A stretch of 32,000 nt of DNA from Candidatus Heimdallarchaeota archaeon (GCA_030149205.1 JASBSB010000001.1:960001-992000); one strand, 5' to 3'. Positions 15,442 through 32,000 are shown, counted from the first letter of the stretch. Notes: generated by a model not told the origin, from the sequence alone. Program-made: numbers and translations.

Positions 15442-16368
15442 TTGAACCCAGAGGTTGTCTCTTTGAGCTCTGATTTCATTCAGGTGGTCAATGAATCCTT
15501 GTCAATGATTCCTTTAGACTTATCTGAGTATGAAAACATCACCTCAGTTATCATCACAGATGATTTAAGATTAGTTGATATGGATAAAGTCTCATCCTCA
15601 AAGGGGATCTTATTGATCGATAATAATCCTGTTATCACAACCCATAAGGAAAACATCCTTGTTTGGGAAATAAATTTCACAGAGATCACTCCTTTCTTGC
15701 TCAACTTCAAGCTATCTGTCTTAAATAAACTGATTACAAAAGAAGTATTAAGATCTACCTCGTTTCAAAATTTAGATAGGCCCTCGCTAGAGGATAAAAA
15801 CACAATCATTTTTATCACAGGAAGTGCAGGTGCCCCTAGAATGATTACTGACATATTAACCTCCCTTCACAAAAATATTCACCCCATAATAGTCGTTCAA
15901 CACATTTCGAGGTCCTTTGACAAAAGGTTTGTAAATAGAATCAATTCCAAAGGAAAAATAAACGCGGTGTTGGTAAGTAGTTCTTCCCAACTAAAAGATA
16001 ACCAAATTTATGTTGCTCCAGCTGATTACCACATAGAGATAATAAATTCACCGAAGGGGTTTATTGTGAAGAAATCAGAAGGCTCAAAGGTAAATTTTAC
16101 AAGACCATCAGCCGATGTTACTCTGTTTTCTATGGCAAGGCTCTCAAGTTTGATTCCTTTGGTTGTAGTGATGAGTGGGATGGGAAGAGATGGAAGAGAA
16201 GGAATTAGAATTTTAAAAAGAGAAAACCCCGATACTGTGGTTATCGCATTAGATGAGGATGAAAGTCCAGTAAATGGGATGAATAGAGAGGTTATAAAAT
16301 CAAATTTTGCGGATTATGTTTTGACAACAACACAGATCATCTCATTCATTCAGAGATTTAGAGCTTGA
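15442..16368 (+). CDS. cheB: CheB-type methylesterase with degenerate N-terminal receiver-like region
   Basis: Ser-His-Asp triad motifs TGSAGA, VQHI, MSGMGRDG; also IYVAP.DYH and RPSADV. TTG start. Confidence 0.88.
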   Translation: MNPEVVSLSSDFIQVVNESLSMIPLDLSEYENITSVIITDDLRLVDMDKVSSSKGILLIDNNPVITTHKENILVWEINFTEITPFLLNFKLSVLNKLITKEVLRSTSFQNLDRPSLEDKNTIIFITGSAGAPRMITDILTSLHKNIHPIIVVQHISRSFDKRFVNRINSKGKINAVLVSSSSQLKDNQIYVAPADYHIEIINSPKGFIVKKSEGSKVNFTRPSADVTLFSMARLSSLIPLVVVMSGMGRDGREGIRILKRENPDTVVIALDEDESPVNGMNREVIKSNFADYVLTTTQIISFIQRFRA

Positions 16369-16998
16369 ACTTCTTTTAAATGCTAACGTCATCCAAAAGC
16401 GGCTTTGGTCAATCGTTTCCCATTCATACCCCTTTGATTTCATCTGATTGGTTAAATCATCTATTCTATGAAGATATGGTCTAAACGAGTTGGTTAATGC
16501 TGCAATTGGAGAAAAAAGCTTCAGAAGTACTCTAAGGAATAACCAAGGACGAGGAAGTGTGACCACAATTTCCTCAGCGTTTAATGACACACATTTATTC
16601 ATCAATGTCTCTCTATCAGGATAGCAACAAAGTACCCTATGCATGGAGACGCCATCAACACTTTCCGCATCATTGAAATTTTTAAAGTTAACCACCTTTA
16701 GATCAACACCTTCTGAAATTCCCATTTCCTTAAAATTTTCTGAAGCCTCATTGATCATTGATGTAGAGAGATCAATCCCAATAACTTTTGTTTTTGGAGA
16801 TTTATTTTTAACCTCCATAAGTAATGTTCCAGGACCACATCCTACATCTAGCACAGATTTAGGATTTGATTCAACTAGATAGTTTACATGTTTCATTGCA
16901 CTTATGGGTAAACCTGAGGACTTTTGTCTATCCGACATTCGCTTGCTTTCCCGATCAAAAAATCTACTAATGGTCTGATCCTTTGTTGTCTTATTCAT
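16342..16998 (-). CDS. Class I SAM-dependent methyltransferase (HRVLCCYPD subfamily)
   Basis: VLDVGCGPG, IGIDLS.SM, HRVLCCYPD. Confidence 0.9.
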   Translation of the reverse strand: MNKTTKDQTISRFFDRESKRMSDRQKSSGLPISAMKHVNYLVESNPKSVLDVGCGPGTLLMEVKNKSPKTKVIGIDLSTSMINEASENFKEMGISEGVDLKVVNFKNFNDAESVDGVSMHRVLCCYPDRETLMNKCVSLNAEEIVVTLPRPWLFLRVLLKLFSPIAALTNSFRPYLHRIDDLTNQMKSKGYEWETIDQSRFWMTLAFKRSSSSKSLNE

Positions 16999-17035: not shown

Positions 17036-17132
17036 TTTTCTGAAAGGTAGGAAATCTGACATTTTCTTCTGAAAAAGTGATTACACTTTAGTTACTTTAT
17101 TAACAAGGTGTCACGCTCAATAATTATTAGAG

Positions 17133-18761
17133 ATGTCTAAGTTAATTTTGATAAATCATATTGTGAGTCAAAACCTTAGGCAATATGTTGAAAGTATAAA
17201 TAAAACCTGTGTTTCTGGGAACACATACTTTCTAGTATACTTTGGCATCGAGAGCTATTTATCTAAAGTAATCCAATTAATTGAGGACAAAGATCCGCTG
17301 GAGAGGGAAAGGGTGATATTTTCGATCTTTGGTGATTCGGATATATCGAAATGTGCGTCCCTCAATATTCTAATTAATAATATTCTAGGCTTAAAGTTGA
17401 TGAGAGAGACTAATTTCTCTGTCATTCGTGATGCCTTATTGAATCAATTTAATACGTTGCTGAATGAATACTATCAGTTACATGTATGTGAAACATCAGT
17501 TGGAGTTCAAAACTTAAATGACATTATCATACGATACCCATTGGTTGATATATTTGATCAAAACGAGAGAGCCGTACTCTCTGATAATCAATTAGTCAGC
17601 ACTCAACAAATTGAGATGCTCACCGTTGATAACACCAGATACCACTTTTTTGGATTAATTGGGGATAAATTAGACAAAGTTTCTGAATTTAAAGACAAAT
17701 TTCTAAATTCAATCCAGCTAAACGAAGTCATTATCATTAATGTGAATATGAGTGCTGTTTATCAACATTTGCTCTCCACAAATCTTATTCCTTATTCAGC
17801 AGTTTTATCAGAGTTAAAGCTAAATGATTGTTGGCTAAACCTTTCTGATCTTGAGAAACATCGATACTCAACTAGATTACCTGACCCAAATAGGAAAAAC
17901 CCAATCATTTTGGCTCCCTATTTCAAATTCATCAAAAACCACCTTTCTTCTGTTAACATCCAGTCCAATATCAACCTGTTTGAAATTTACCTTGTCTCAC
18001 ATGACAGAAAGCCTGAATTTATTAATTTCCTACTTTCAAAAATTTCTAAATTCAATGACATCATATTAGAGGATAAAGGAAGAACAGTCAAAATAATTTT
18101 CCCCCAGAAAGTTAGGTTAGATACTTTGTTTGATCCCAAATTTCCAGAGTTTGAACAAATAATAGAATCAACAACCCTAGGAGAAAATATGTATCTAACA
18201 ATATTGCATGGATTTCGATTGTCTCCAGAGAAAATATTGAATAACACCCTTCCTGATGAATATGAGCTCATAAGTGATAACAATTTAGGAAACTACTATA
18301 TCATTTCTAACGAAAAAGTAAACGTTAACTTACAGGATTATGTGGAGAATCGAAATGCAGTCAATCTCTTAAAAAACTTAAATGGACAGCAGTTTTTCCA
18401 AATTCAGGTGTTACCACAAACTGACAATTTGAGCTTTCCCATTTTAACTATCGCCCAGTGGAAGAATGGAGTTTTACAGTTTACATTACCTTCGCTCTTA
18501 GACCCATTAAGTAGTATTAACTCTTGGAAAGGGAAGTCGTTTGATGTTGTGTGTATTTTTGATAAAGGAACCTCTTTTCTGCTTAGAGGTGTAATCCAGA
18601 GTCACGATAATTTTGATTTAAAGTATTGGCAAACAAATTTTTTTGATAAAGATCAATTTAATTTGATAAAAAGAAAAAGTGGGCTATCTGAAACATTTGA
18701 ATACTATTGGCAGAGAAACCTTTATTCTTATGAAATTGAAGAGGTGAGGATGATTGAATAA
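17133..18761 (+). CDS. Hypothetical protein, possible C-terminal split-barrel (PNPOx-like) domain
   Basis: 542 aa ORF overlapping the menA start by 8 nt; C-terminal LSFP...GVLQFTLP...VVC...SFLLRGVI pattern. Confidence 0.65.
   Translation: MSKLILINHIVSQNLRQYVESINKTCVSGNTYFLVYFGIESYLSKVIQLIEDKDPLERERVIFSIFGDSDISKCASLNILINNILGLKLMRETNFSVIRDALLNQFNTLLNEYYQLHVCETSVGVQNLNDIIIRYPLVDIFDQNERAVLSDNQLVSTQQIEMLTVDNTRYHFFGLIGDKLDKVSEFKDKFLNSIQLNEVIIINVNMSAVYQHLLSTNLIPYSAVLSELKLNDCWLNLSDLEKHRYSTRLPDPNRKNPIILAPYFKFIKNHLSSVNIQSNINLFEIYLVSHDRKPEFINFLLSKISKFNDIILEDKGRTVKIIFPQKVRLDTLFDPKFPEFEQIIESTTLGENMYLTILHGFRLSPEKILNNTLPDEYELISDNNLGNYYIISNEKVNVNLQDYVENRNAVNLLKNLNGQQFFQIQVLPQTDNLSFPILTIAQWKNGVLQFTLPSLLDPLSSINSWKGKSFDVVCIFDKGTSFLLRGVIQSHDNFDLKYWQTNFFDKDQFNLIKRKSGLSETFEYYWQRNLYSYEIEEVRMIE
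18741..18747 (+). promoter_or_regulatory. Shine-Dalgarno site for menA
   Basis: GAGGTGA ending 6 nt before the TTG at 18754. Confidence 0.55.
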
Positions 18762-20388
18762 GAATCTTAGACAACTGCTTGCTGAATATAAATCGATGAA
18801 TATGTACCTTCCTGATAAATCAATTCTTGGAAAAATTGGGCTTTCTAAGAATGGAAAAATTTTGATCTCCTCAAATATTTTAAACTCATTATCAGAACCT
18901 GAAAAATGTGTTATTTATTGGTTCAAAGCCACACCAAGCTCATTGATTGAGTCAGACAGGACTCCAAGAGTTGCGATTTTCGGAGAAATTAATAATTCTG
19001 GAGAAATTATTGTGGAAAGAGAAACATGGTGGAACCGGGAGGATATAAATCTTGAAACTTTGCTTCAGAGACAAAGCAGTCTCAAAAAGTTCAATCCAAG
19101 CGATCGATTTATGAAGGTATTAAATAATCTTAAGTTACATGAGGAAGCTGTAGTTATAGGATCAATATTCAATAATCCAATTCACTTTAAAACAACAATT
19201 TATTCAAGATCAGAGGACAAGGTGATTCTTTTCATCCCACTATCAGAGATGAGAGAACAACAACTAAAGTATACAAGAACCTTAAAAGTTCTGTGTACTA
19301 TGAATAAAGAAATATCAAATCTAGAATTGATAGGAGAAGTCCTCACCTTGACCAAAAAATTTGACGGGTTGTATATTAACCTAAAAATTCGACGAATTGT
19401 TTATGGTGACCGTACAGAGTTTGAATATTTAGAGGGTGAACCTTATTCTGAGATGAAAGAATTTCTGACGGGATCTTGGGTCACATTACGATACTTTTTA
19501 GGACTTACCAGGTTCTCATTTTTTCTGTTCCCCTTAGTTTCTGTCCTTTTGACCATGTTTTATTTGTACTCATCTGGTGTCAGTTTGTCGCCGAGGTCAA
19601 TCATTTTAGAATTACTTGCGATTCTGTTTCTACAGTTATCCATGAATGTGTTTAATGACTATTTTGACAGTAAAAGTTACGCAGATATCTTTAATCCTGG
19701 ACAAGGTAGTATGCATGGAGGTTCAAAATTTATAAAATTTGAGCTTATAGAACCTTCGAAATCATTTCAGATAGGAGTAATTCTTTCAGTTCTAGGATTA
19801 TTTTTGAGTCTTTTGCTCATTTATTTTTCCTCTCGTTTCGATTTATTAGCCTTTGGATTTTTTGTTTTTCTTTTTGCTCTTGCTTTTTCAACCCCACCTT
19901 TAAAGCTCTCTTATAGAGGATGGGGAGAGATCCAGATTCCAATACTTCTGGTTGTCGCACCAGTTGTAGGTACAATTTATCTCTTTACTGGATCTTGGGG
20001 GTTTACACCCTTTTTTGAACTTTATGGTTTGATTATACCCCTTGCATTAACATTATTCCAATTTACATTGGTGAACAGTATGGCAGATTCAGAAGCAGAT
20101 AAAAAAGCAGGAAAAGAAACATTAGCTATTAAGCTAAGTGGTAAAAATTTAACTCTTCTGTTATATGCTTCTTTTGGACTTAGCTACGTATTTTATCCAC
20201 TCCTTAGTTATTTTTATAATAATTGGGCGTTGAGCCTATTGCTCATACTTGCAATTCCACACTTCCTAGTAATTAATCAAATCACTGGATCTGACCACAA
20301 CTCCAAACTAGTTGATATGATCTCAATTAAAATTCTCATATTGTATCTTGGTTTTGGATTAATTTCTGTTTTTGCCCTTATCTTTTGA
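18754..20388 (+). CDS. menA: MenA-like 1,4-dihydroxy-2-naphthoate prenyltransferase (UbiA superfamily) with ~240 aa soluble N-terminal extension
   Basis: NDYFD...AD, GGS, FSTPPLKLSYRGWGE, NSMAD.EADKKAGKETLAIKL; about 9 TM segments starting near residue 245. Confidence 0.85.
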   Translation: MNKNLRQLLAEYKSMNMYLPDKSILGKIGLSKNGKILISSNILNSLSEPEKCVIYWFKATPSSLIESDRTPRVAIFGEINNSGEIIVERETWWNREDINLETLLQRQSSLKKFNPSDRFMKVLNNLKLHEEAVVIGSIFNNPIHFKTTIYSRSEDKVILFIPLSEMREQQLKYTRTLKVLCTMNKEISNLELIGEVLTLTKKFDGLYINLKIRRIVYGDRTEFEYLEGEPYSEMKEFLTGSWVTLRYFLGLTRFSFFLFPLVSVLLTMFYLYSSGVSLSPRSIILELLAILFLQLSMNVFNDYFDSKSYADIFNPGQGSMHGGSKFIKFELIEPSKSFQIGVILSVLGLFLSLLLIYFSSRFDLLAFGFFVFLFALAFSTPPLKLSYRGWGEIQIPILLVVAPVVGTIYLFTGSWGFTPFFELYGLIIPLALTLFQFTLVNSMADSEADKKAGKETLAIKLSGKNLTLLLYASFGLSYVFYPLLSYFYNNWALSLLLILAIPHFLVINQITGSDHNSKLVDMISIKILILYLGFGLISVFALIF

Positions 20389-20422
20389 ATCTGTACTTTG
20401 AAACATTAGCATAGATTTATAC

Positions 20423-20430
20423 TTTTAAAT
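20423..20430 (+). promoter_or_regulatory. Internal TATA box upstream of the GGR gene
   Basis: TTTTAAAT 21-28 nt upstream of ATG 20451. Confidence 0.45.
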
Positions 20431-20450
20431 TAGTATTTTTACTTGACGTA

Positions 20451-21821
20451 ATGACTGAAAAGGTATTGGAAACAGAGGTTGTTGTAGTTGGAGGTGGCCC
20501 TGCGGGAGTATCTGCTGCATTTACTTTAGGTAGACAGAAAATCCCGACGATTTTGGTTGATCGTAAACCCAAGGAAAAGATTGGTGATAAGGTATGTGGT
20601 GATGCACTTAACCCTATTTTGACAAAGTGGTGTTATGATCAAGTTGGTCTGCCACAACCTGATCCAGAGAAAAAAGAACTGATGGAAATAGCTGAGACAA
20701 TCGTTTTAAGAGGTTCTAACCCAAGGGTAATTTTGCCAATGGGTCTTGGTTCGGCGACAGTTGATAGGTTGAGATATGGACAAAAACTTCTTCACGCTGC
20801 AGAAGAACTTGAATCAGTTTCTGTTATGGCAGAAACCAGAGTGAAAGAGGTCATAGTTGAGAACAATGTTGTGAAAGGCGTTAAAGTTCTCACTCCAGAG
20901 GGTGAACAGTCAATTATGTCAAAAATAGTAATTGATGCATCAGGTTCATCTGGTGTTGTTAGAAGAAGACTACCATTGAGTATGTGCACAAAATTCCCTC
21001 AGAAAATACCAAGAGAAGAGATGATTGTCGCCTATCGTGAGATAATTAGAACCAAAGAACCACATCAGTTTCAGAAAGGACTGTACCTCACCTATGAAAA
21101 GGAACTTGAGGAGGTAATGCCAGGATATTACTGGTTTTTCAGTAGAGGTGAGCGTGAGCTAAACATTGGTCTGGGTTATTTAATGATAGAGGAGAATTTG
21201 GGGAAAAATATAAGAGAGTTAAATCAGAGCGTAAGAGATAGATATTTCCCTGACGCTGAGATCCTAGCCTCTCAAGGTGATCAGATCCCTGCTAGGATGC
21301 CTCTTCCCTCATTGGTTCACAATGGTTTTATTACTGCAGGTGATGCTGGTGCGTTGGCAAACCCATTAAATGGAGAAGGACACGGCCCCGCTTTATTTTC
21401 AGGAATTAAAGCAGCTCAAGAAATATTAAAAGTAAGAGAAGAGGGAAAAGAATACACTGAAGAACACCTTTGGGGTTACAACAAATGGGTTTGGAGTTAC
21501 TTTGGAGTAGAATTTGCTATGGGGATCGGAATCATTAAATTCATTTTCAAATTTGGGTATCCTGAGTTTGAATGGTTAATAGAACATGGGATCATAACTG
21601 AAGATGATATCAATACTCAGCTCTATGAGCCAGCAAAAGGACACAAAGGGATGTTAAAGAAAGTGTTTAAACTTGCTCGTAAACCAAGAGTTCTGATGGG
21701 ATTGAGAAAAACCCTGAATCATGTAGAGAAATTAGTGAAAATCGCACAAGAATATCCCGATATCGAAAATTTTGATGAATGGAATAGAAAGTTAGAAAAA
21801 GAACTTGAAACAGAGCTTTAG
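20451..21821 (+). CDS. Geranylgeranyl reductase family FAD oxidoreductase (prenyl reductase)
   Basis: GGGPAG, IGDKVCGDA, IDASG, VAYRE, PGYYWFF, NIGLG, AGDAG..NPLNGEG; motif spacing resembles Sulfolobus-type GGR. Confidence 0.92.
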   Translation: MTEKVLETEVVVVGGGPAGVSAAFTLGRQKIPTILVDRKPKEKIGDKVCGDALNPILTKWCYDQVGLPQPDPEKKELMEIAETIVLRGSNPRVILPMGLGSATVDRLRYGQKLLHAAEELESVSVMAETRVKEVIVENNVVKGVKVLTPEGEQSIMSKIVIDASGSSGVVRRRLPLSMCTKFPQKIPREEMIVAYREIIRTKEPHQFQKGLYLTYEKELEEVMPGYYWFFSRGERELNIGLGYLMIEENLGKNIRELNQSVRDRYFPDAEILASQGDQIPARMPLPSLVHNGFITAGDAGALANPLNGEGHGPALFSGIKAAQEILKVREEGKEYTEEHLWGYNKWVWSYFGVEFAMGIGIIKFIFKFGYPEFEWLIEHGIITEDDINTQLYEPAKGHKGMLKKVFKLARKPRVLMGLRKTLNHVEKLVKIAQEYPDIENFDEWNRKLEKELETEL

Positions 21822-21826
21822 TAACT

Positions 21827-23263
21827 ATGATTGATTGGTTTAACCTTTATCCAATTACCTCCAATAAAACATACCTCATATCTTCTAACCAGTCATACAC
21901 CTACAAAGAAATTGAACACATGATAAATGAATTAATCAAACAAATGGAGATAAACAATTTACCTCCCGGATCGAGAGTTGCTATTTTGTTAAATAACTCT
22001 CTAGAATACATCCTTATTATTTTTTGTTTAATCAAAGCCCAGATCCCCATCATTTTTTTAAACTCAAAAAATTCATTAGAAGTTAATTTAAACCAGCTTT
22101 CAGATGGACAAGCGACTCATCTCATTAGCTCCAATGAATTTGTTCCAAAAGATTCAGATTTGATTACTAGCTTATCAAACTTTAATAGTTTGACTCTTTT
22201 AAGGATAGCAAATTCTGACAAGAAAATCCTTAAACCTCTGGCTCCTAACACCCAATTTATTTTGTTCACTTCTGGCACCTCTGGAAAATCAAAAGCCACC
22301 CAACTTACTTTAGAAAATTTTTATCAAAGTGCTTTAACTTCCTCTCATAGATTAAAATATACAGAAAAAGACTCTTGGGTATTGACACTCCCCTTATACC
22401 ATGTGGGAGGGTTAAGTATTGTTTTGAGGTCTTTAATATTCAACATGACTGTTGTTTTAGTTGATCAGTTTGATTTGAAAACTATCAAAGAGGTGTCTGA
22501 GCAAAATTCACCTAGTATTATTTCTCTGGTTCCAACCATGCTTCACAGGATTTTAATCTCAGAAAAGCCAGAGTATTTACGGAGTTACAGGGTGATTCTT
22601 GTGGGTGGAGCAAGAACCCCCAATAATTTAATAAAACTGTCAAAAGAGCATAATCTAAATATTTTTGTCACCTACGGAATGACTGAAGCAAGCTCCCAAG
22701 TTGCAACAGCAATCCCAGAAGAGGTTTTTCAAGATCCAGAGACTGTAGGGATGTTACTGGAAAAGCTGGATGCTAAATTGGTCAACAAGATAGATGAGAA
22801 CGTGGGAGAGCTTTGCATCAAAGGACCACAGGTTATGAGAGGATACTTTAATGAGAGCTTCAGTGGTATTGATAATGAGGGTTGGTTTAACACTGGAGAT
22901 TTAGCTTCAATTTCAGATAATGGTTTTCTATACATTCAAGTCCGTAGAACTGACCTGATTGTCTGTGGTGGAGAAAACATTTATCCAAAGGAAATAGAAA
23001 GATTTGTTCTAGGGTTTAAGGATATAGAAGATTGTTTAGTGTTTGGATTGCCAGATGCTGAATGGGGGCAAATCGTTGCAATGGCAATTGAGACTCAAAT
23101 GGAGATGGACCTTTCAGACCTCAAATCAAAAATTGGCTTAAATCTAGGGACGTTTAAAAAACCACGACGGATTTACTCATTTAAAATATTTCCCAGATTT
23201 GAGTCTGGTAAACTTGACACAAGTAAACTGTTGAAACTAATAAAGAATAAGAATCAGACCTAA
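21827..23263 (+). CDS. menE: o-succinylbenzoate-CoA ligase (MenE-like, ANL superfamily)
   Basis: FTSGTSGKSK, LPLYHVGGL, SLVPTML, TYGMTEASSQ, WFNTGD, GGENIYP.EIE, GKLD; located next to menA. Confidence 0.8.
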   Translation: MIDWFNLYPITSNKTYLISSNQSYTYKEIEHMINELIKQMEINNLPPGSRVAILLNNSLEYILIIFCLIKAQIPIIFLNSKNSLEVNLNQLSDGQATHLISSNEFVPKDSDLITSLSNFNSLTLLRIANSDKKILKPLAPNTQFILFTSGTSGKSKATQLTLENFYQSALTSSHRLKYTEKDSWVLTLPLYHVGGLSIVLRSLIFNMTVVLVDQFDLKTIKEVSEQNSPSIISLVPTMLHRILISEKPEYLRSYRVILVGGARTPNNLIKLSKEHNLNIFVTYGMTEASSQVATAIPEEVFQDPETVGMLLEKLDAKLVNKIDENVGELCIKGPQVMRGYFNESFSGIDNEGWFNTGDLASISDNGFLYIQVRRTDLIVCGGENIYPKEIERFVLGFKDIEDCLVFGLPDAEWGQIVAMAIETQMEMDLSDLKSKIGLNLGTFKKPRRIYSFKIFPRFESGKLDTSKLLKLIKNKNQT

Positions 23264-23316
23264 ATTTACCTAACTTGTCCATAATTATTAATTTGCAACC
23301 CTAGCCCTAAGACACA

Positions 23317-23324
23317 TTTAATTA
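23317..23324 (+). promoter_or_regulatory. TATA box of the shikimate operon
   Basis: TTTAATTA 21-28 nt upstream of ATG 23345, within an 81 nt intergenic gap. Confidence 0.45.
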
Positions 23325-23344
23325 TCTTTAATCCAATCAAACAT

Positions 23345-24127
23345 ATGGAATTTTTAGATTCAATAGGTAAGAAACTAAGATATAGAAGATTTGTTGATCA
23401 AGAGTCAGGTGCTATTATAGCAGTCCCAATGGATCATGGCTTTACTCTCGGCCCTATCTCAGGGTTAAAGAACATCTCAAAAACAACTAATGCAGTTATC
23501 AAAGGGGGTGCTACCTGTGTGGTTGTTCATAAGGGCAATATACGGAATATAGCAACTCTACCCCCTGATAAAGGTATCATAATTCATGTATCTGGTTCAG
23601 TTAATTCATCACCTCATTCAAATCAGAAGGTACTGACAGGTGGAGTTGAAGATGTTCTTAGGTTAGGAGCTGACGGTATTTCGACCCATGTCAATGTTGG
23701 TGCAACTGGGGATAAGGACATGATTGCAGATCTTGCAAAGATTAGTTCCGATGCAAGCAAATTTGGAGTGCCAGTATTAGCAATGATGTATGCAAGGAAT
23801 GATGATGGTATGACCTCCACTGATGTCTCTTCACTTGCACACCTTGCAAGATTAGCTGAGGAAGCTGGTGCAGATATCGTTAAGGTAAATGCATCTAAAC
23901 TGGGAAAGGGATTTGATGAGGTGGTGCAAGGAACAAACATACCTGTAATTATTGCAGGGGGAGACAAAACCAGCAACTTTGAGACATTTTTAAACACAGT
24001 CAAATCATGTGTTGAGTTAGGTGCAAGTGGAGTATCCATTGGGAGAAATATCTTCCAACAAGAAAATCCTGAACAGGCCATATCAAGGGTTATTTCTGTT
24101 GTCAGAGAAGCGATGAGGGAGAGATAA
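23345..24127 (+). CDS. aroA': 2-amino-3,7-dideoxy-D-threo-hept-6-ulosonate synthase (class I aldolase, MJ0400 type)
   Basis: GKKLR.RR, VPMDHG, IIHVSGS, S.HVNVG, AMMYAR, GADIVK (Schiff-base Lys), IAGG, IGRNIFQ; directly precedes DHQ synthase II. Confidence 0.92.
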   Translation: MEFLDSIGKKLRYRRFVDQESGAIIAVPMDHGFTLGPISGLKNISKTTNAVIKGGATCVVVHKGNIRNIATLPPDKGIIIHVSGSVNSSPHSNQKVLTGGVEDVLRLGADGISTHVNVGATGDKDMIADLAKISSDASKFGVPVLAMMYARNDDGMTSTDVSSLAHLARLAEEAGADIVKVNASKLGKGFDEVVQGTNIPVIIAGGDKTSNFETFLNTVKSCVELGASGVSIGRNIFQQENPEQAISRVISVVREAMRER

Positions 24128-24129
24128 AC

Positions 24130-25143
24130 TTGCCATCTCAATTTCTTTTAGATACAGAATCAGAATCATTTTCTGAACTTTTGGAGACCATTTACACTAA
24201 GGTACAAGGAGTCATTACAAGGGATAATGAGATACTGGATTCTAAAGGTCTACCAGTGTATCAGGTTAAAAATCATAGTATCATGGCAGACTCTGGATTG
24301 ATTGGAAAAGTTGTAGAGATCAATTCCAACAGTGATATGCAAGAAATCATGGGGTGGGAACCTGAGGATAGTATTCAGATACTACTGATCAAAACCTCTG
24401 ACTGGAGAATCATTCCTATAGAGAATCTTATTGCTAAGTTTCATAGGCTGGGGGTAAAACTAGGGGCTTGGGCAAATTCTGTTGAAGAGATAAAACTTCT
24501 TGAAAACATCCTAGAGCTAGGTGTGGATCAGGTTGTTCTAAAAGTAACAGACACGGTAAGAACGGATATAGAAAAATATCTTGCTGCTTCTGCTTCAGAC
24601 AAGATTGAGCTAATTGACCTTGAGGTAGAATCAGTGGAAAGAATTGGAAACGGAGATAGAGTTTGTGTTGATACCTGTGCCCTCTTAAAAAAAGGAGAGG
24701 GGCTTTTGATCGGAGTAACCAGCAAATTATTCGCTCTGATTCAGGCAGAAGTTGAAGATTCAGGCTATGTAAACCCAAGGCCCTTTAGAGTCAATGCTGG
24801 TCCACTTTCAGCATATGTCTTGGGAGGGGATAAAACCAACTATCTTTCAGAGCTAAAAGCAGGGAGTCAAGTGACTGTGGTTTCAAAAACTGGAGAAACC
24901 AGAAAAGAGTTAGTTGCAAGAGTCAAGATTGAGAGACGTCCAATGTTACTGTTGAGATTGAAAGTAAACAATACTGAGGCTCCACTCATACTCCAGGATG
25001 CTGAGACTGTAAAGCTCATCACCTCCAAAGGAGATTCCGTAAGTGCTGGAGACCTTAAGAAAGGGGATCTCATCAAAGGTGCTTTGAAAGAATTCGGTCG
25101 CCACTTTGGAATGGAAGTAGATGAATTTATTGAGGAAAGATAA
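24130..25143 (+). CDS. aroB': 3-dehydroquinate synthase II (MJ1249 type)
   Basis: PIENLIA, GDRVCVDT, RPFRVNAG, YLSEL.AG, KIERRPM, LQDAETV, GRHFG; TTG start. Confidence 0.96.
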   Translation: MPSQFLLDTESESFSELLETIYTKVQGVITRDNEILDSKGLPVYQVKNHSIMADSGLIGKVVEINSNSDMQEIMGWEPEDSIQILLIKTSDWRIIPIENLIAKFHRLGVKLGAWANSVEEIKLLENILELGVDQVVLKVTDTVRTDIEKYLAASASDKIELIDLEVESVERIGNGDRVCVDTCALLKKGEGLLIGVTSKLFALIQAEVEDSGYVNPRPFRVNAGPLSAYVLGGDKTNYLSELKAGSQVTVVSKTGETRKELVARVKIERRPMLLLRLKVNNTEAPLILQDAETVKLITSKGDSVSAGDLKKGDLIKGALKEFGRHFGMEVDEFIEER

Positions 25144-25149
25144 TCGGTT

Positions 25150-26640
25150 ATGATAGCTGGAATAGTTGACTCAATTGAACTTGTCAAATCTGATATCTCA
25201 GATAACAATCTTTTGGAATTTAGAATTGATCTGAACTCTGAGCTGATCTCAAAGATCAGTGAAGCACCTCAGGATCAAGTAATCTTGACTTACAGAAGCA
25301 TAGATGAAGGAGGGAGAGGAGAAGAATCTGACAGATATAAGATACTCTCTGAATTAAGTCGAATTCCCACAGGTTTTATTGATCTTGAGATCTCGAGGGA
25401 TGCAAAATTCCTAGCAGAAAAAATGTATGAAATTGTTCAACCAAACATCATCCTCTCTTCCCACCAGTACCTGAAACCTATGCGAGAAACATACTTAAAG
25501 TTCAAAGAAAGTATTAAAACATTTATTTTGAATGTTTTAGGTGAAGAGGATGAGAATAAACAGCTACCTCAACTCATTAAAAGTATAGAGAAAACGTTGC
25601 ACAAGAAAATTATCATAAAGTTTGTTGGAGACCCCATCGACACTGTTGATTATCTGAAGACCTATGACATCATGAGTAAGCACTTTGAAAGGATTATCTG
25701 CTTAGGATTAAATAATTTTGCTCACATAGGTCGAACTGCAAATAGAAAACTAAACCAATATCTCATCTTTGCATCTTTGAATCAATCACAGAGATTCCCT
25801 TCCGTCACCGAGCTAAACAATCTGGTAGAATTAAATGGAGCCTTTACAGGGTTAATTGGAGATCCAATAGAACATTCACTGTCTCCTCTCATTCACAATC
25901 AACTCTTTGAATCGCTAAATTTGTCAGGATACTATCATCTACTTAAGGTAAACTCCTCAGAAGACTTGGGGTACCTCATAAACAAGCTACAGCTATTAGA
26001 CTTTACAGGAACAAACGTTACAATTCCCTACAAGGAGGATATTATTCAACATATTGACTCTCTCTATAAAGAGGCGGAGGAGCTAATGTCAGTAAATACC
26101 ATTAAATTTGAAAAAAGGAGAATTAAGGGTTATAACACTGACTGTTCAGGATTTTCTACATTCTTGAGATCCCATGGTTTAGAAAAAAGTCAGACAGCCC
26201 TTGTTTATGGGGCAGGAGGTGCCTCAAAAGCTGTGATTTATTCGCTACTGAAAGAAAATATTGAAGTTACCCTAGTTAACAGAAGCTTAGAGAGAGCAGA
26301 AACCTTGAAAGAAACATTTAAAGGAAAAATCATGGTGTCTTCCAAAGAACAATCACAAAAACAGAGCTATGATTTATTTGTAAATTGTACACCATTAGGA
26401 AGAACTGGTGATATTAGTGCCATCCCTGAATTTGGAACGTTTAACTCAGCAATGATTGACCTTTCATATTCAACCAAGAAAACAGGTACTGTTAAACTTG
26501 CGGAGAAATTAAATTTACAAAGCTTTGACGGTAAAGAAATGCTGTTTCATCAAGCAGTAGATTCATTTGAAATCTGGTTCGATAAAGAAGTAGATAGAGA
26601 ACCTTTACTTGACAAATTTTTGAAGGAGGTGTCACAATGA
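25150..26640 (+). CDS. aroD-aroE: Fused type I 3-dehydroquinate dehydratase / shikimate dehydrogenase
   Basis: N-half: LEFRID, LTYRS..EGG, IDLE, LSSH, IIIK. C-half: GDPIEHSLSP, NVTIPYK, VNT, NTD, GAGGAS, VNRS, NCTPLG, GKEMLFHQA. Confidence 0.9.
   Translation: MIAGIVDSIELVKSDISDNNLLEFRIDLNSELISKISEAPQDQVILTYRSIDEGGRGEESDRYKILSELSRIPTGFIDLEISRDAKFLAEKMYEIVQPNIILSSHQYLKPMRETYLKFKESIKTFILNVLGEEDENKQLPQLIKSIEKTLHKKIIIKFVGDPIDTVDYLKTYDIMSKHFERIICLGLNNFAHIGRTANRKLNQYLIFASLNQSQRFPSVTELNNLVELNGAFTGLIGDPIEHSLSPLIHNQLFESLNLSGYYHLLKVNSSEDLGYLINKLQLLDFTGTNVTIPYKEDIIQHIDSLYKEAEELMSVNTIKFEKRRIKGYNTDCSGFSTFLRSHGLEKSQTALVYGAGGASKAVIYSLLKENIEVTLVNRSLERAETLKETFKGKIMVSSKEQSQKQSYDLFVNCTPLGRTGDISAIPEFGTFNSAMIDLSYSTKKTGTVKLAEKLNLQSFDGKEMLFHQAVDSFEIWFDKEVDREPLLDKFLKEVSQ
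26625..26631 (+). promoter_or_regulatory. Shine-Dalgarno site for aroK
   Basis: GGAGGTG ending 5 nt before ATG 26637. Confidence 0.55.
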
Positions 26641-27512
26641 AAAGCATCACTTCTCGAACAGGTAGTGCTATCACAGTACTGAATGCCATGAAAAGTGGAA
26701 TAGGTGCAGCAATCGGCATAAGAGAGTATACAGATGTAAGGATAGAAGAAGGAGAGGGAATTTCTTTCAATATAAATCCAAGCCTTAATGATTTCAGGCT
26801 TGTTGAGGCAATAATTAATGAATATCAAACCCAGACAGGAGTAAAGATTGAGAACATCACAATACAAACTGATGCACCATTCCCTCCTGCAATGGGGATG
26901 AAAACTTCGAGTTCTGTCGCAAATGGATTAATTGAGGCACTCAACAGATATTTTGGAATCGAGATGGAAACAAATAAGTTAATCGGAATTGGTGCTGAAG
27001 CATCAATCAACGCAGGAGTTTCAATAACTGGAGCTTTTGATGATGCTTATGCCAGCTACCTTGGTGGTTTAGCTTACACTAACAATGAGAAAAGGGAGCT
27101 GCTAGGGCTATTTTCTGCACCTGAAAATTATGATGTGGTGCTTTTGTTACCAGACTACCCGATCCCTAAAGTCTTACTCAAGAACGTAATCCAATTGGTA
27201 GATGATGGACTGATCGAAGAGGCAAGAGAATCATTTGAAAAAAGACGACTTGTTGAGGCAATACAATACAATACAGCTGCATACGCCTCTGTATTTTTGC
27301 CTGATCCTGACATCATAACCAGATTAGAAGAGTTAAGTTGTGAGGTGATAGGACTAAATGGTGGTGGACCAGCAATGTTTGCTATAACCAAACCAAAGGT
27401 CACAGAAAGGTTTGTAGAAGAGGCAAAAGAGCTGATGCCAGAGTTGGTCTTATTAAAAACCACTTTTAGAAAATTGAACCGTGGAAAATTAAGGAGCTCG
27501 CCAGATGATTAA
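26637..27512 (+). CDS. aroK: Archaeal shikimate kinase (GHMP superfamily)
   Basis: AITVLNA, G.GAAIGI, PPAMGMKTSSS, ITGAFDDA.AS.LGG, GLNGGGP. Confidence 0.95.
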   Translation: MKSITSRTGSAITVLNAMKSGIGAAIGIREYTDVRIEEGEGISFNINPSLNDFRLVEAIINEYQTQTGVKIENITIQTDAPFPPAMGMKTSSSVANGLIEALNRYFGIEMETNKLIGIGAEASINAGVSITGAFDDAYASYLGGLAYTNNEKRELLGLFSAPENYDVVLLLPDYPIPKVLLKNVIQLVDDGLIEEARESFEKRRLVEAIQYNTAAYASVFLPDPDIITRLEELSCEVIGLNGGGPAMFAITKPKVTERFVEEAKELMPELVLLKTTFRKLNRGKLRSSPDD

Positions 27513-28782
27513 AGTTTACCCATCTAAACTATCAGGAACCATTAACCCCCCACCAAGCAAAAGCGTGACTCATCGAGCATTAATCCTTGCTGGGATGTGT
27601 CAGGCAGGATCGACAATCACTAACAAGTTAGATGGAGAGGACACTAATGCAACTCAAGCGGTTTTAGAGAGGATGGGGATGTTATTTAAGGAGTTTTCAA
27701 CTAATCGACTCTATGTATCCAACGTAATTCAACATGGAGCTGGAATGGCAGATTGTAAAAATTCAGGCACGACAATCAGACTCTTAACTGCAGTGCATGG
27801 CAATCTTACTGAAAAGACGACTCTAACTGGAGACAGTTCGTTATTAACACGACCTATGCAAGACCTTACACAATCTCTAAGAAACATTGGTATAGAAATA
27901 GAAGATACAGATGGAAAACCACCAGTGACAATCTCTGGAAAAAGGAGAGAGGGAAATCAAATAATCGATATTGAGGGCAACAAAAGCTCACAATTTATCT
28001 CTGGGCTTGCCTTATATGCAGCAATGAGACCAAACAAATCAGTTACTTCTATTCGGATACTTAACAAACTAAGCTCTAAACCTTATCTTGATCTCACTCT
28101 TAAAATGTTAGAAGAAATTGGCACTGACATCTCATGGTCTGATGATAGAACTCTGAAGGTGATCAGTAGGTACCCCTATATGAAACATGATTTTTATGTA
28201 CCACCGGATGCCAGCTCTGCTGCATTCTTTCTTGGAGCTGGGGTGTTGCGAGACAACAAAGTTACTGTTGAAGGAAATTTCTCAAGGTATCATCAGGCAG
28301 ATTACCAGTTAATTGAAATATTACAACAGTTAGGGGTAAATCTAGAATTCGAGAACTACAAAATTATTATTACTGGCAGCAAACTTATTGGTGCAGATAT
28401 AGATTTAAGCAATGCACCAGATTTATTCCCAATTGTTTGTGTAATTGCAAGTTTTGCAGAAGGAAAATCTCACATTTATGGTGCAAGCCATTTAAAGTAT
28501 AAGGAGACAAACAGAATTAAGACAACTGCTGCACTCATAAAAGGAATTGGTGGAATGATAGAAGAAAAAGAAGATGGGGCAATTATCACAGGACAAAAGA
28601 CCCTTAAAGGGGGTACAGAGATAGATTCGTTTGGTGATCATAGGATAGCCATGGCTGCAGCAATCGCTGGAACTGCAACTGATGAGCCAGTGACAATAAT
28701 TGATGAAGAATGTGTGGCTGTTTCATACAGGGATTTTTTTATGGATTTACAACACATAGGAGGAAAGGTTGAGGAAGTATGA
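27505..28782 (+). CDS. aroA: EPSP synthase (3-phosphoshikimate 1-carboxyvinyltransferase)
   Basis: PPSKSVTHR, NSGTTIR, L..RPM, SSQFISG, SKPY, PDASSA, KETNRI, DHRIAM. Confidence 0.97.
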   Translation: MIKVYPSKLSGTINPPPSKSVTHRALILAGMCQAGSTITNKLDGEDTNATQAVLERMGMLFKEFSTNRLYVSNVIQHGAGMADCKNSGTTIRLLTAVHGNLTEKTTLTGDSSLLTRPMQDLTQSLRNIGIEIEDTDGKPPVTISGKRREGNQIIDIEGNKSSQFISGLALYAAMRPNKSVTSIRILNKLSSKPYLDLTLKMLEEIGTDISWSDDRTLKVISRYPYMKHDFYVPPDASSAAFFLGAGVLRDNKVTVEGNFSRYHQADYQLIEILQQLGVNLEFENYKIIITGSKLIGADIDLSNAPDLFPIVCVIASFAEGKSHIYGASHLKYKETNRIKTTAALIKGIGGMIEEKEDGAIITGQKTLKGGTEIDSFGDHRIAMAAAIAGTATDEPVTIIDEECVAVSYRDFFMDLQHIGGKVEEV

Positions 28783-29870
28783 ATACCTTTGGCACAGTGT
28801 TTCGAACAACATTAATAGGTTCCTCACATGGAAACCTGGTTGGAGTGATCATCGAGGGTATCCCTCCCAACTTAGAGATAGATATATCAAATATAGAGAC
28901 CTTTCTGGCAAGACGGGCACCAGGGCAGTCTAAAGTAACTACAAGAAGAAAAGAAAAGGATAAACTCATTGTCGAAGCTGGATTGTTCAAACAGAGAACC
29001 ACCGGTGAACCATTTGTTGCTTTTGTAAGAAACTCTGATGTGGACTCAAGCTACTATGAAGAGATTAAGGACACGCCACGTCCAGGACACGCAGACTATC
29101 CCGCTTTTGTCAAATTTGAAGGTGCTAATGATTACAGAGGTGGAGGAAGATTTTCTGGCAGGATGACTATTGGGTTGGTTATTGCTGGAACTATTGCAAA
29201 ACAGCTGCTGAAACAGGTTGGAATTGATGTACGTGCATACACCAAAGAGATTGCAGGTCTTGAATCTGAAGTCATCAACACCACTGAAGATTATATTTAC
29301 TCTGAACAGAATATCGTTCGCGTCCCTGATAATGAAATGATTGAAAGTGTCACCAATGCAATTATGAAAGCCCGAAAGGATGGGGACAGCGTTGGTGGAA
29401 TTGTTGAATGCACCATTAACAATTTACCCGTTGGTGTTGGAGAACCCATCTTTGATTCAATTGAAAGTAAGCTCTCACACATCATGTTTAGCATTCCAGC
29501 TGTAAAGGGAGTTGAGTTTGGATCTGGATTCAATGCTGCAAGGATGAAAGGAAGTGAGCATAACGATGAATATTTTTATAATGAATCTCAACAGATTCGA
29601 ACCAAAACCAACAATGCAGGAGGAATCTTAGGAGGAATTAGCAATGGAATGCCAGTCGTCTTTAGAGTGGCATTCAAACCTACATCATCCATCCCCAAAA
29701 TTCAGACAACTGTTAATCTTCAAGAAAAGGGAAAACTCGAGAGCCTTAAGGTAAGAGGAAGGCATGACCCATGTATTGTTCCTCGTGCGGTTCCTGTGGT
29801 TGAGTGTTGTGCTGCAATTGCAATCTACGACTTAATGTTACAAGGAGGTATAACGACACATGCAGACTAA
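28779..29870 (+). CDS. aroC: Chorismate synthase
   Basis: G.SHG, TTGEP, RPGHAD, GGGRFSGR, SIPAVKG, NNAGGILGGISNG, FKPTSSI, GRHDPC. Confidence 0.97.
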   Translation: MNTFGTVFRTTLIGSSHGNLVGVIIEGIPPNLEIDISNIETFLARRAPGQSKVTTRRKEKDKLIVEAGLFKQRTTGEPFVAFVRNSDVDSSYYEEIKDTPRPGHADYPAFVKFEGANDYRGGGRFSGRMTIGLVIAGTIAKQLLKQVGIDVRAYTKEIAGLESEVINTTEDYIYSEQNIVRVPDNEMIESVTNAIMKARKDGDSVGGIVECTINNLPVGVGEPIFDSIESKLSHIMFSIPAVKGVEFGSGFNAARMKGSEHNDEYFYNESQQIRTKTNNAGGILGGISNGMPVVFRVAFKPTSSIPKIQTTVNLQEKGKLESLKVRGRHDPCIVPRAVPVVECCAAIAIYDLMLQGGITTHAD

Positions 29871-30927
29871 GAAGAAGGTAGTGGTATTAGGAGGAACTGG
29901 ACTTATTGGACAACAGTTTATTAGAATGCTTAGTAACCATCCAATGTTTGAGCTGGTCGGAATTTATGCCTCTGAAAGATCCACAGGAACTGACCTTAAA
30001 GATATTTGGAGATTACCACATACTGAGTGTCCCGAGGAGTTCAAAAATTTGATCATCCAAAATCTGGACACCCTGAATCCTGAGGATTTTCAGGTGTGTT
30101 TCTCTGGCCTACCAAGCAGTATTGCTGGAGAGCTTGAGGATAATCTGAGGATCAGAGGAAAAGCCGTCTTCAGCAATGCATCCTCTCACAGGATGGATGA
30201 GGATGTCCCTATACTCATCCCCGAGATTAACAGCGAGCAGATTAGACAGATAGAGTTACAGAGAAAGAGATATAACACAGAAGGATTCATCATAACAAAT
30301 TCAAATTGTTCCATATCGGGTGTAGCAATTTTTTTGGATGCATTAAGAAAAATCGTTAGTTTTGATGAAGCATTCGTTTCCACGTATCAAGCCACCTCAG
30401 GTGCTGGATTTGCAGGCCTTGAGAACAAAAGTTTTACGGATAATGTCTATCCTTTCATCCGTTCTGAAGAGGAAAAGATGAATGAGGAGGGTAAGAAGAT
30501 CCTTGGACATCTTACAGATGAATTGAGGATTGATCCATATCCAGTGAAAATCATAGCCCAGTGCCTTCGTGTTCCCGTGATAGAGGGACATACTGCTACA
30601 ATCACCATACCACTGAAGTTTAACGGGACGAAGGAGGACATAATCAATGCACTTCGAAACTACAACTCACCTTTACAACTTACCACACATACCGTAGCCC
30701 CACGCAACCCCATCATTGTTTTTAATGAGGAAGACAGACCTCAACCAATCCTTGATTCTTATATTGGTACTCCAAATCCAGCAAAGGGAATGGGTGTAGG
30801 TGTAGGAAGAATCCGTTATCAGGATGGTTACCTCAAAGCAATTGTCTTGGCTCATAACACAATTCGTGGTGGTGCTGGTGGGTCAATTCTCAATGCTGAG
30901 CTTGCTGTCATCCAGGGGTACATCTAA
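29860..30927 (+). CDS. asd: Aspartate-semialdehyde dehydrogenase (archaeal type)
   Basis: LGGTGLIGQ, SNAS.HRM..DVP..IPEIN, catalytic NCS, TYQA.SGAG, RVPV..GH, HNTIRGGAGG. Confidence 0.96.
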   Translation: MQTKKKVVVLGGTGLIGQQFIRMLSNHPMFELVGIYASERSTGTDLKDIWRLPHTECPEEFKNLIIQNLDTLNPEDFQVCFSGLPSSIAGELEDNLRIRGKAVFSNASSHRMDEDVPILIPEINSEQIRQIELQRKRYNTEGFIITNSNCSISGVAIFLDALRKIVSFDEAFVSTYQATSGAGFAGLENKSFTDNVYPFIRSEEEKMNEEGKKILGHLTDELRIDPYPVKIIAQCLRVPVIEGHTATITIPLKFNGTKEDIINALRNYNSPLQLTTHTVAPRNPIIVFNEEDRPQPILDSYIGTPNPAKGMGVGVGRIRYQDGYLKAIVLAHNTIRGGAGGSILNAELAVIQGYI

Positions 30928-30930
30928 AGT

Positions 30931-32000
30931 ATGGTTGAGGTTCATAAATTCGGGGGTGCCTCATATAAGGATCAAAACAGCATTAAAATTACTCTGAAAC
31001 GAATTCAGAGTCTTTCAGATAAATCAATTGTTGTAACCTCAGCATTTTATGGAGTGACTGACCACCTTCACTCTTACTCTAGAATTTCATCTTTGAATGA
31101 TGTCGATAAATTTATTTCCAAACTTTTACAGATGCATAACTCAAGACTTGATGGAATTTCAGAAATAAAGATAAGCAGAGATTTGAGAGAGGTTGTTGAG
31201 CTTTATGAACTCTTGAAGGGGTACTCTATCACTGGAATAGATACACCCAGGTTTAAGGATCTCGTTATCTCATTTGGTGAACAAATCTCTGCAAAATTAC
31301 TCTCAAATATTTTGGATGCACCTTATGTTGACCCAGCTGAATTTCTACTAACAACTGATGAGCATTATTCTGCATCAGTTCTGATCAAAGAGTCCAAAAA
31401 AGTGACTATTGAAGCTTTACTCCCATTGTTTGAGGTCTCTAATATACTAATTGTACCGGGTTATTTCGGCAAAAACTCCAAAGGTGAAATTAGTCTACTC
31501 GGAAGGTCTGGTACTGACTACTCGGCGGCTGTCATTGCAAACATGCTTAACGCAACCAAATTGGTGATCTGGAAAGATGTTACCGGCTTCATGTCTGGGG
31601 ATCCAAGGGTGGTCGGATCCCCCCAAATCATTAAATTTTTAAATTATAGTGATGCAGCAGATCTAGCATTTCATGGTGCAAAACTGTTACATCCAAAGTC
31701 AATTCACCCAGCAAGAGAGCTAAACATCCCAATAGTTATCCGAAATCTATTTGATGAGATTTCTGAGACCGTGATCTCAGATTCGACCCCGCAGATCAGT
31801 AATATAACCTATAAGTCAGGACTCAAGCTAGCAAAATATGCTTCCAAAGATCTTCATAATATTTTTCAGGAATTTCTGAGAAAAGAGCAAAGGGGTGAGA
31901 TCGAGATTGTTCTTATCCATAAATTTCCGAATAACTCATGGATTCTGTATGATGATTTCTTGAATGAAGCAGAAAGTTACTGTATTGTATACGTGAAGGG
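30931..32000 (+). CDS. lysC: Aspartokinase, 3'-truncated by the window edge (not in the ORF track)
   Basis: My translation from ATG 30931 is open to the end of the window: KFGGAS, VVTSA..GVTD, SFGE..SA, VPGYFG, LGRSGTDYSA, WKDV.G..SGDPR, LAFHGAKLLHP. Confidence 0.95.
   Translation, partial: MVEVHKFGGASYKDQNSIKITLKRIQSLSDKSIVVTSAFYGVTDHLHSYSRISSLNDVDKFISKLLQMHNSRLDGISEIKISRDLREVVELYELLKGYSITGIDTPRFKDLVISFGEQISAKLLSNILDAPYVDPAEFLLTTDEHYSASVLIKESKKVTIEALLPLFEVSNILIVPGYFGKNSKGEISLLGRSGTDYSAAVIANMLNATKLVIWKDVTGFMSGDPRVVGSPQIIKFLNYSDAADLAFHGAKLLHPKSIHPARELNIPIVIRNLFDEISETVISDSTPQISNITYKSGLKLAKYASKDLHNIFQEFLRKEQRGEIEIVLIHKFPNNSWILYDDFLNEAESYCIVYVK

Follow-up and report, generated by a model that had tools for sequence, protein, structure and literature searches.

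The last 15 kb of a 32,000-nucleotide (nt) stretch of DNA from a Candidatus Heimdallarchaeota archaeon (GCA_030149205.1, JASBSB010000001.1:960001-992000; the whole stretch is called the window below) carry a chain of same-strand genes for aspartate metabolism, the shikimate pathway and prenyl or quinone chemistry. This chain is best read as three tandem, co-directional units between 17133 and 32181, a general aspartate-to-chorismate operon and, before it, two small units of quinone or prenyl type, and the probability of that reading can be put at roughly three in four. The operon would be the only shikimate pathway of the genome and so the general supply for tryptophan, tyrosine, phenylalanine and menaquinone. 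The two smaller units would have come to lie beside it through a recent rearrangement, specific to the genus or to this genome, and would not belong to a conserved, dedicated quinone supercluster. The window corresponds to C4:960001-992000 in a 3.31-Mb metagenome-assembled genome (MAG) of 12 contigs that is 93.5% complete; contig C4 ends 3.5 kb past the window. MenE relatives labelled Kariarchaeaceae point to the class Heimdallarchaeia as the probable placement.

The window holds 42 open reading frames (ORFs) of at least 80 amino acids (aa), and both the ORF listing and scans with Pfam and NCBIfam models bear out the claim of a preliminary description of this DNA that at least 12 consecutive plus-strand genes begin at 17133; the 12 are large and run to the window end. 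The gene names given there hold for 11 of the 12, the exception being "menA", which lies far below the cut-offs of the MenA models. The overlaps and tiny gaps that had been claimed were measured at -11 to +6 nt within the block of aro genes, asd and aspartate kinase (AK) at 23345-32181, and 5 nt separate menE from the gene before it, which encodes a flavoprotein of the geranylgeranyl reductase (GGR) family. Larger gaps precede only the starts at 17133, 20451 and 23345 (134, 62 and 81 nt, respectively), all others falling between -11 and +34 nt. TATA-like boxes are found 27-37 nt upstream of exactly these three starts, as had been claimed, and at none of the other nine, against a background chance of about 0.10 per upstream zone in this AT-rich window. 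The putative promoter elements are:

17096..17102, plus strand: TATA-like box TTTATTA, 37 nt before the ATG at 17133
20416..20429, plus strand: two TATA-like boxes, TTTATA and TTTAAA, 35 and 27 nt before the ATG at 20451
23317..23323, plus strand: TATA-like box TTTAATT, 28 nt before the ATG at 23345

Because each of the three larger gaps contains a TATA-like box, the spacing supports a division of the chain into three putative units, consisting of a split-barrel partner and a prenyltransferase fusion, of GGR and menE, and of the eight genes aroA'-aroB'-aroDE-aroK-aroA-aroC-asd-AK. The Pfam and NCBIfam scans saw no trp, phe or tyr genes in the window, again as had been reported. The third unit contains the following genes, with the model scores that identify them:

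23345..24127, plus strand: AroA', 2-amino-3,7-dideoxy-D-threo-hept-6-ulosonate synthase (NF005556, 275.8 against a cut-off of 241)
24130..25143, plus strand: AroB', 3-dehydroquinate synthase II (PF01959, 320 bits against a gathering threshold of 22.2)
25150..26640, plus strand: AroD-AroE fusion, type I dehydroquinase plus shikimate dehydrogenase (AroE half, TIGR00507, 230 against 200)
26637..27512, plus strand: shikimate kinase of the archaeal GHMP type (TIGR01920, 157.9 against 126.85)
27505..28782, plus strand: AroA, 5-enolpyruvylshikimate-3-phosphate (EPSP) synthase (TIGR01356, 379.2 bits)
28779..29870, plus strand: AroC, chorismate synthase (TIGR00033, 407.6 bits)
29860..30927, plus strand: Asd, aspartate-semialdehyde dehydrogenase, sole copy in the genome (TIGR00978, 355.7 bits)
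30931..32181, plus strand, the window ending at 32000: AK of 416 aa (TIGR00657, 209.6 against 208.7)

The archaeal entry into the shikimate pathway, which avoids 3-deoxy-D-arabino-heptulosonate 7-phosphate (DAHP) and had been proposed for this locus, finds clear support here: AroA' and AroB' are present, and a search of the 93.5%-complete genome gave no DAHP synthase (PF00793). On the stricter model TIGR01949 AroA' scores 250.5, under the cut-off of 299.45; AroB' directly follows it and itself scores under the cut-offs of the NCBIfam equivalogs. The AroD half of the fusion is more divergent, reaching only 39 bits on TIGR01093 against a cut-off of 139, and a phmmer search of this half against the PDB found nothing. 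A search with a five-sequence profile succeeded, matching the plant bifunctional dehydroquinase-shikimate dehydrogenase 2gpt (E 2e-19, the closest) as well as bacterial AroD proteins. The columns for E, R, H and K are invariant in that profile, and these we take to be the catalytic residues. This fusion of AroD with AroE is a conserved feature of the family to which this genome belongs. No ACT domain was detected in the operon AK, whose stop lies 181 nt past the window end. By tblastn, all aro genes and asd are single-copy in the genome. A second shikimate pathway was considered and rejected on the strength of these copy numbers and of the failure to find DAHP synthase.

In the proposed route AK and Asd would make L-aspartate semialdehyde, AroA' and AroB' would condense it with DKFP (6-deoxy-5-ketofructose-1-phosphate) to give 3-dehydroquinate, and AroDE, AroK, AroA and AroC would take this product on to chorismate. 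The DKFP route is established, with AroA' MJ0400 and AroB' MJ1249 of Methanocaldococcus jannaschii as its enzymes (White 2004; Porat et al. 2006; both cited in PMC9012536). The present locus resembles that system in having AroA' and AroB' above family thresholds without a detectable DAHP synthase, and it shares with DKFP-type archaeal pathways the standard AroD, E, K, A and C steps downstream, including the archaeal GHMP kinase. It differs from the known archaeal entry in that asd and an aspartate kinase lie inside the same operon; a search for literature on asd or AK within DKFP-type aro operons found no paper, although the library was limited and this is no proof of novelty.

It had been suggested that the sequence past base 32000 be inspected for genes of a general amino-acid locus, and no hom, thr or dap gene occurs there up to the contig end. 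Such genes were rejected as downstream members of the operon, since the AK stop is followed by an 830-nt non-coding gap (L099:2182-3009; no ORF longer than 81 aa, no Rfam family, no tRNA) and then by unrelated small genes: small unassigned ORFs, a DUF2204 nucleotidyltransferase-like gene and a cupredoxin gene, after which the contig ends. Rfam and tRNA scans of the window and of the 3.5 kb beyond it found nothing.

The genes that would draw on this chorismate for amino acids are found elsewhere in the genome. A cluster at C4:24-35 kb reads trpD-trpC-(trpF)-trpB-trpA, then, further on, chorismate mutase (CM)-tyrA, an AK with ACT domains, trpE and trpG, and contig C9 carries a gene for chorismate mutase-prephenate dehydratase (CM-PDT, or CM-pheA). 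With a single aro operon and the Trp, Tyr and Phe branches at other loci, the operon must serve amino acids and quinone both, and the suggestion that it serves mainly quinone synthesis is not supported for this genome. The AK between CM-tyrA and trpE-trpG is the second of the genome (473 aa; L077:12011-13432, equal to C4:32011-33432). A third is fused to homoserine dehydrogenase on contig C2, at about 550.6-553.1 kb, and DapA was not found in the genus. The three aspartokinases thus appear to be split by branch, two of them within aromatic operons, an arrangement that would imply branch-specific control of the aspartate flux into aromatic compounds. The aro-trp-hisC-tyrA-aroE supraoperon of Bacillus subtilis is an example of an aromatic supraoperon. 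As there, the aro genes here are packed with genes of neighbouring pathways in one direction and with several promoters, which are putative in the present case. Unlike there, the neighbours are aspartate-pathway and quinone genes, and trp and tyr lie in a separate operon with an AK of its own.

Much the same can be said of menaquinone, for which the genome carries a nearly complete set of genes at scattered positions:

21827..23263, plus strand, in the window: MenE, o-succinylbenzoate-CoA ligase (TIGR01923, 347.2 against 330.15)
C8, menD at 558783: menF-menD, overlapping (menF 298.8 bits, menD 381 bits)
C8, two genes downstream of menD: menG (above cut-off)
C7:440433: menB (413 bits)
C4:570025: menC (TIGR01928, 302.6 against 200.65)
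C10:2167-3009: canonical menA (TIGR00751, 230.6 bits)

Curated cut-offs are exceeded by all seven of MenF, D, C, E, B, A and G, whose genes are spread over at least five loci. MqnA of the futalosine route was not found in the genome, in keeping with the earlier claim that the classical route is used. That claim had been accompanied by the possibility that no menFDHCB exists anywhere in the genome; of that set plus menG, everything except menH was found. The enzyme set is the same as in the menFDHBCE operon of Escherichia coli and in the men operons of sister genera, where MenE orthologues lie within menF-menD-(menB)-menA-menE (L038, L040 and L042). It differs from both in that the set is scattered and menE alone adjoins the aro operon. 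All told, the locus and its scattered partners reveal the biosynthetic route, the classical men pathway fed by an aspartate-semialdehyde-dependent shikimate pathway. That Heimdallarchaeia respire with menaquinone is an existing assumption in the literature (bioRxiv 10.1101/2024.07.04.601786); a literature search on the men route in Asgard archaea found no paper, the library being limited and the result no proof of novelty.

The two genes of the first unit and the first gene of the second are less easily placed:

17133..18761, plus strand: 542-aa protein whose C-terminal ~130-175 aa are a putative split-barrel partner domain of the PNPOx (pyridoxamine phosphate oxidase)-like type, assigned through chained sequence matches
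18796..20388, plus strand: 530-aa fusion of a PNPOx-like split barrel to a MenA-like UbiA prenyltransferase (PF01040, 61.7 bits)
20451..21821, plus strand: flavoprotein of the GGR family and of the type of Sulfolobus GGR (4OPT/3ATQ, E 7e-51); the genome has four paralogues in all

The UbiA domain occupies only the C-terminal half of the fusion, for which the on-record start is Met15 (530 aa) of a longer frame that could begin at TTG 18754 (544 aa); from the on-record ATG, the fusion follows the partner gene after a 34-nt gap, with no overlap. The label "menA" does not stand. On the MenA models, including TIGR00751 and the PRK06080-type equivalog, the fusion reaches only 37-67 bits against cut-offs of 102-555, and in a TIGR00751 search of the genome it scored 40 bits against 230.6 for C10:2167-3009. 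The window prenyltransferase was accordingly rejected as the MenA of the organism, that role falling to the canonical gene on C10. Its closest sequence relatives are nevertheless MenA-type enzymes, and among nine homologues (alignment A1) the first Asp-rich motif (NxxxDxxxD) is invariant and the second (DxxxD) is kept in most. Most genomes of the family encode a homologue, with lengths of 467-549 aa.

The N-terminal domain of the fusion is identified as a PNPOx-like split barrel by a predicted fold, which a sequence match in a neighbouring family (f4) confirms. An AlphaFold2 model of the N-terminal 223 aa, built from an eight-sequence alignment, has a mean pLDDT (predicted local distance difference test) of 62 and is good over about residues 100-205. 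Residues 99-214 superpose on 2ou5_B with Z 10.9 and a root-mean-square deviation of 3.2 over 118 aa, and 53 chains reach Z of at least 8, belonging to the split-barrel fold that binds flavin mononucleotide (FMN) (PNPOx-like, flavin-reductase, flavin/deazaflavin oxidoreductase and PilZ-class); clusters of the AlphaFold database agree. The ESM Atlas gave a weak PilZ-type lead (score 0.8). The f4 homologues of the fusion pass PF01243 (34.4 and 28.7-29.3 bits against 28.1) and also carry PF01040.

Identification of the partner is more indirect. The 542-aa protein has no Pfam or NCBIfam match, its N-terminal ~360 aa belong to no recognisable family, and its family has only six members among 1.84 billion representatives. 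In f4 the fusion is preceded by an overlapping PNPOx_N gene of 162 aa. The product of this gene matches the 152-aa ORF that immediately precedes the fusion in genus g6 (E 5e-20) and also the 168-aa protein P0160 (E 3e-18), whose own match is to the C-terminal domain of the 542-aa family (library-wide E 1.4e-5; hhalign E 9.4e-5, probability 59%). Through this chain, the C-terminus of the 542-aa protein would be a split barrel, and the chained matches make genes 1 and 2 a divergent split-barrel partner and a split-barrel::MenA-like prenyltransferase pair. Partners are 476-542 aa in this genus, enlarged by an N-terminal extension, and small PNPOx_N proteins in other genera and families. Both partner and fusion are very divergent, at about 16-32% identity even within the genus. 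BLASTP of the 542-aa protein against the fusion N-domain gave no significant similarity, its AlphaFold2 model (pLDDT 32) was unusable, and the ESM Atlas returned no usable match for it. The predicted complex of the fusion N-domain with the partner C-domain scored 0.00, which gives no answer either way. The partner-fusion module is uncharacterised, and the locus holds a highly divergent instance of it, joined here by GGR. Another metagenome encodes a second kind of flavoprotein-MenA fusion, the 505-aa MenA-like protein P0018, which is fused to Flavodoxin_2/FMN_red of the NAD(P)H:quinone reductase type.

The GGR-family protein aligns end to end (residues 4-451) with the Sulfolobus acidocaldarius enzyme (3ATQ/4OPT; 3ATR and the other 4OPx entries are of the same protein) and has in common with it the GDK-C-GDA and YxWxF motifs. 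It differs from that enzyme and from mycobacterial MenJ in lying under the curated cut-offs of the lipid-reductase and MenJ models (for MenJ, 55.7 on NF045655 against 700) and in being one of four paralogues; on TIGR02032, a model of the GGR family, it reaches 144.9, just under the cut-off of 158.8. Its only link to menaquinone is its neighbourhood to MenA-type genes within the genus. The second unit would combine one clear men gene with a prenyl reductase of the Sulfolobus type, whose role may be to saturate a prenyl chain.

Synteny was compared over the four genomes of the genus (g1, comprising this genome, G000, and its sisters G001, G002 and G003) and seven genomes from other genera of the family, which is called f1 and has 12 genomes. 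The claimed adjacency of men and aro genes stands within the genus and fails outside it. Two sisters, G002 and G003, have menE-aroA'-aroB'-aroDE-aroK-aroA-aroC-asd in the same order as here, so that menE adjoins the aro genes in three of the four genomes of the genus and in none of the seven others. In G001, menE sits at a contig end and the aro operon starts another contig, with no menE in the preceding 1.8 kb. This second contig (C38) also carries at L098:594-731, 1.1 kb upstream of the intact aroA', a 46-aa fragment that is 61% identical to the N-terminus of AroA'; menE occupies this place in the other genomes, and the fragment may be a scar left by rearrangement. Among the genomes examined, asd follows aroC in this genus alone, and AK directly follows asd only here; an AK lies nearby, differently placed, in all three sisters. 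The other genera have a six-gene core, aroA' to aroC, without asd or menE, which adjoins tyrA in G004. Their menE is in or next to the men operon in all seven genomes, with menA beside it in six and no aro genes near. A search for AroC on genome contigs returned only distant bacterial and DHVE2 loci and gave no useful synteny.

The genes upstream of menE have a history of their own. GGR orthologues (66% identity) stand beside the partner-fusion pair in all three sisters, where the trio is followed by an alpha/beta hydrolase, CheB and canonical MenA and does not lie near menE; only in this genome, therefore, is the trio found upstream of menE. Genera g4 and g6 have a MenG-like-partner-fusion-alpha/beta-hydrolase operon that is divergent from the men operon. 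Two f4 genomes also have the pair (L101:6897-9147 in G018 and L102:1725-3615 in G014), a PNPOx_N gene overlapping one for PNPOx_N::UbiA, among unrelated neighbours (subtilase, NTP-transferase/PGM/starch-synthase genes). Neither menD, menE nor aroC was found in f4, so the module is not tied to the synthesis of menaquinone de novo. In this family it is repeatedly seen beside men genes, but it also occurs without them. Chemotaxis genes are seen beside the men or prenyl module in the genus, with CheB at 15442-16368 (plus strand) in the window and at L061:9446-10483 (minus strand) in G003, and CheC and CheA next to MenA on C10 (L066:3021-5419); these recurring neighbours suggest one ancestral neighbourhood that has been broken apart.

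A class-wide sample of 83 species genomes, in which family f1 accounts for 12 including this one, gives the broader pattern, with one marker per branch. Many of the genomes are only 63-89% complete and related genomes are not independent, which limits the counts:

AroC: 11 of 12 in family f1, 4 genomes elsewhere in the class
AroB': 9 of 12 in family f1, 6 genomes elsewhere in the class
MenD: 11 of 12 in family f1, none elsewhere in the class
CM-TyrA: 8 of 12 in family f1, 1 genome elsewhere in the class
TrpD: 5 of 12 in family f1 (this genus and one further genome), none elsewhere in the class
PDT: 4 of 12 in family f1 (this genus only), 1 genome elsewhere in the class

With MenD in 11 of 12 genomes against 8, 5 and 4 for CM-TyrA, TrpD and PDT, menaquinone is the most constant consumer of chorismate in the family, and at that level it is men genes, not those for trp or phe, that constantly accompany the aro operon.

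How far these genes form one functional whole has to be judged against several alternatives. The preliminary description took the whole 15-kb chain as a single package, in effect a supercluster in which chorismate derived from aspartate would go mainly to menaquinone by way of ring activation, prenylation and saturation of the tail. The shared orientation of all 12 genes, menE directly before aroA' in most of the genus, and the prenyl or quinone type of the upstream genes would all fit such a package, as would the family counts, in which menD keeps closer company with aroC than trpD or PDT does, and the genome G008 (94% complete), where aro and men genes are present and trpD, PDT and tyrA were not found. 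Yet the Trp, Tyr and Phe branches are complete in this genome, which has one aro operon to feed them, six of its seven identified men genes lie elsewhere, the window prenyltransferase is not the canonical MenA, and the second AK, in the tyrA-trpEG operon, ties aspartate supply to amino-acid synthesis. Three promoter-like sites break the chain, menE is its sole unambiguous men gene, the trio of partner, fusion and GGR is not beside menE in the sisters, gene order is only partly conserved and only within the genus, the menE-aro adjacency being absent beyond it, and four aroC-positive genomes of the class are without menD. The package is thus quite unlikely, and service mainly to quinone, although it draws partial support at the family level, does not hold for this genome. 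A bolder version is equally doubtful, namely that the family keeps the shikimate pathway chiefly for menaquinone and that the locus in this genus is an emerging, co-regulated respiratory-quinone island with its own AK isozyme, menE, a tail-saturating GGR and a split-barrel/MenA-like pair that couples flavin redox to naphthoquinol prenylation. Several points do weigh against the division into a general operon and two small units. TATA-like motifs are common in DNA of 35% GC, and read-through could join all three predicted units in one transcript. In the genome, tblastn found no AroA' paralogue and so no DhnA-type candidate for a DKFP synthase, a gap in the supply of DKFP that PMC9012536 also noted for other archaea. 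Neither MenH nor a thioesterase for 1,4-dihydroxy-2-naphthoyl-CoA (DHNA-CoA) was identified in the genome, which offered only weak alpha/beta hydrolases, the best match to the MenH model TIGR03695 reaching 71 bits against a cut-off of 208; hydrolases adjoining MenA or the fusion are candidates only. Finally, the closer tracking of the family's aro operon by men genes than by trpD and PDT leaves room for a tighter functional tie to quinone.

In another rival reading, the first unit and GGR would have nothing to do with menaquinone, prenylating and reducing some other acceptor (such as another quinone, a lipid or a tetrapyrrole) and lying beside menE by rearrangement only. This is unlikely on balance, though it deserves more credence than the single package: the pair occurs in f4 among subtilase and glycogen-type genes where menD, menE and aroC were not found, the best models for GGR are lipid reductases (for digeranylgeranylglycerophospholipid, DGGGPL), with all four paralogues scoring alike, and split barrels of the same fold also bind heme or F420. 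It sits less well with the MenG-like operon of g4 and g6, where the fusion is divergent from menF-menD-menA-menE, with the distance of about 2.5 kb between fusion and MenA in the g1 sisters, and with the MenA-type affinity of the fusion itself. That the menE-aro adjacency is an artefact of assembly or binning is barely credible; the genome is indeed a 12-contig MAG with a contig end just past the window, but the window sits on a 995-kb contig of uniform composition, and two independently assembled sister genomes repeat the menE-aro-asd order. No major view is changed by these results. The arrangement as a general aspartate-to-chorismate operon with two small neighbours is mostly ordinary and genus-specific; less usual are the presence of aspartokinase isozymes within aromatic operons and the module of split-barrel and MenA-like proteins.

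A few other genes in and around the window deserve mention. Just upstream of the chain lie two class I S-adenosylmethionine (SAM) methyltransferases (16342-16998 and 13798-14418, both minus strand) with weak UbiE/UbiG-like matches; the former is divergent from the gene at 17133 and has only the SAM-binding motif in common with the MenG-like methylase of g4 and g6. RNase III of the bacterial or eukaryotic type is not known to be common in archaea, and the window encodes at 5624-6298 (minus strand) a 224-aa protein with a Ribonuclease III domain and a double-stranded RNA-binding motif. Elsewhere, the genome is recognisable as Asgard by the full-length, eukaryote-like actin that it encodes at C2:232008-233114 (L100; 445 bits on Pfam Actin).

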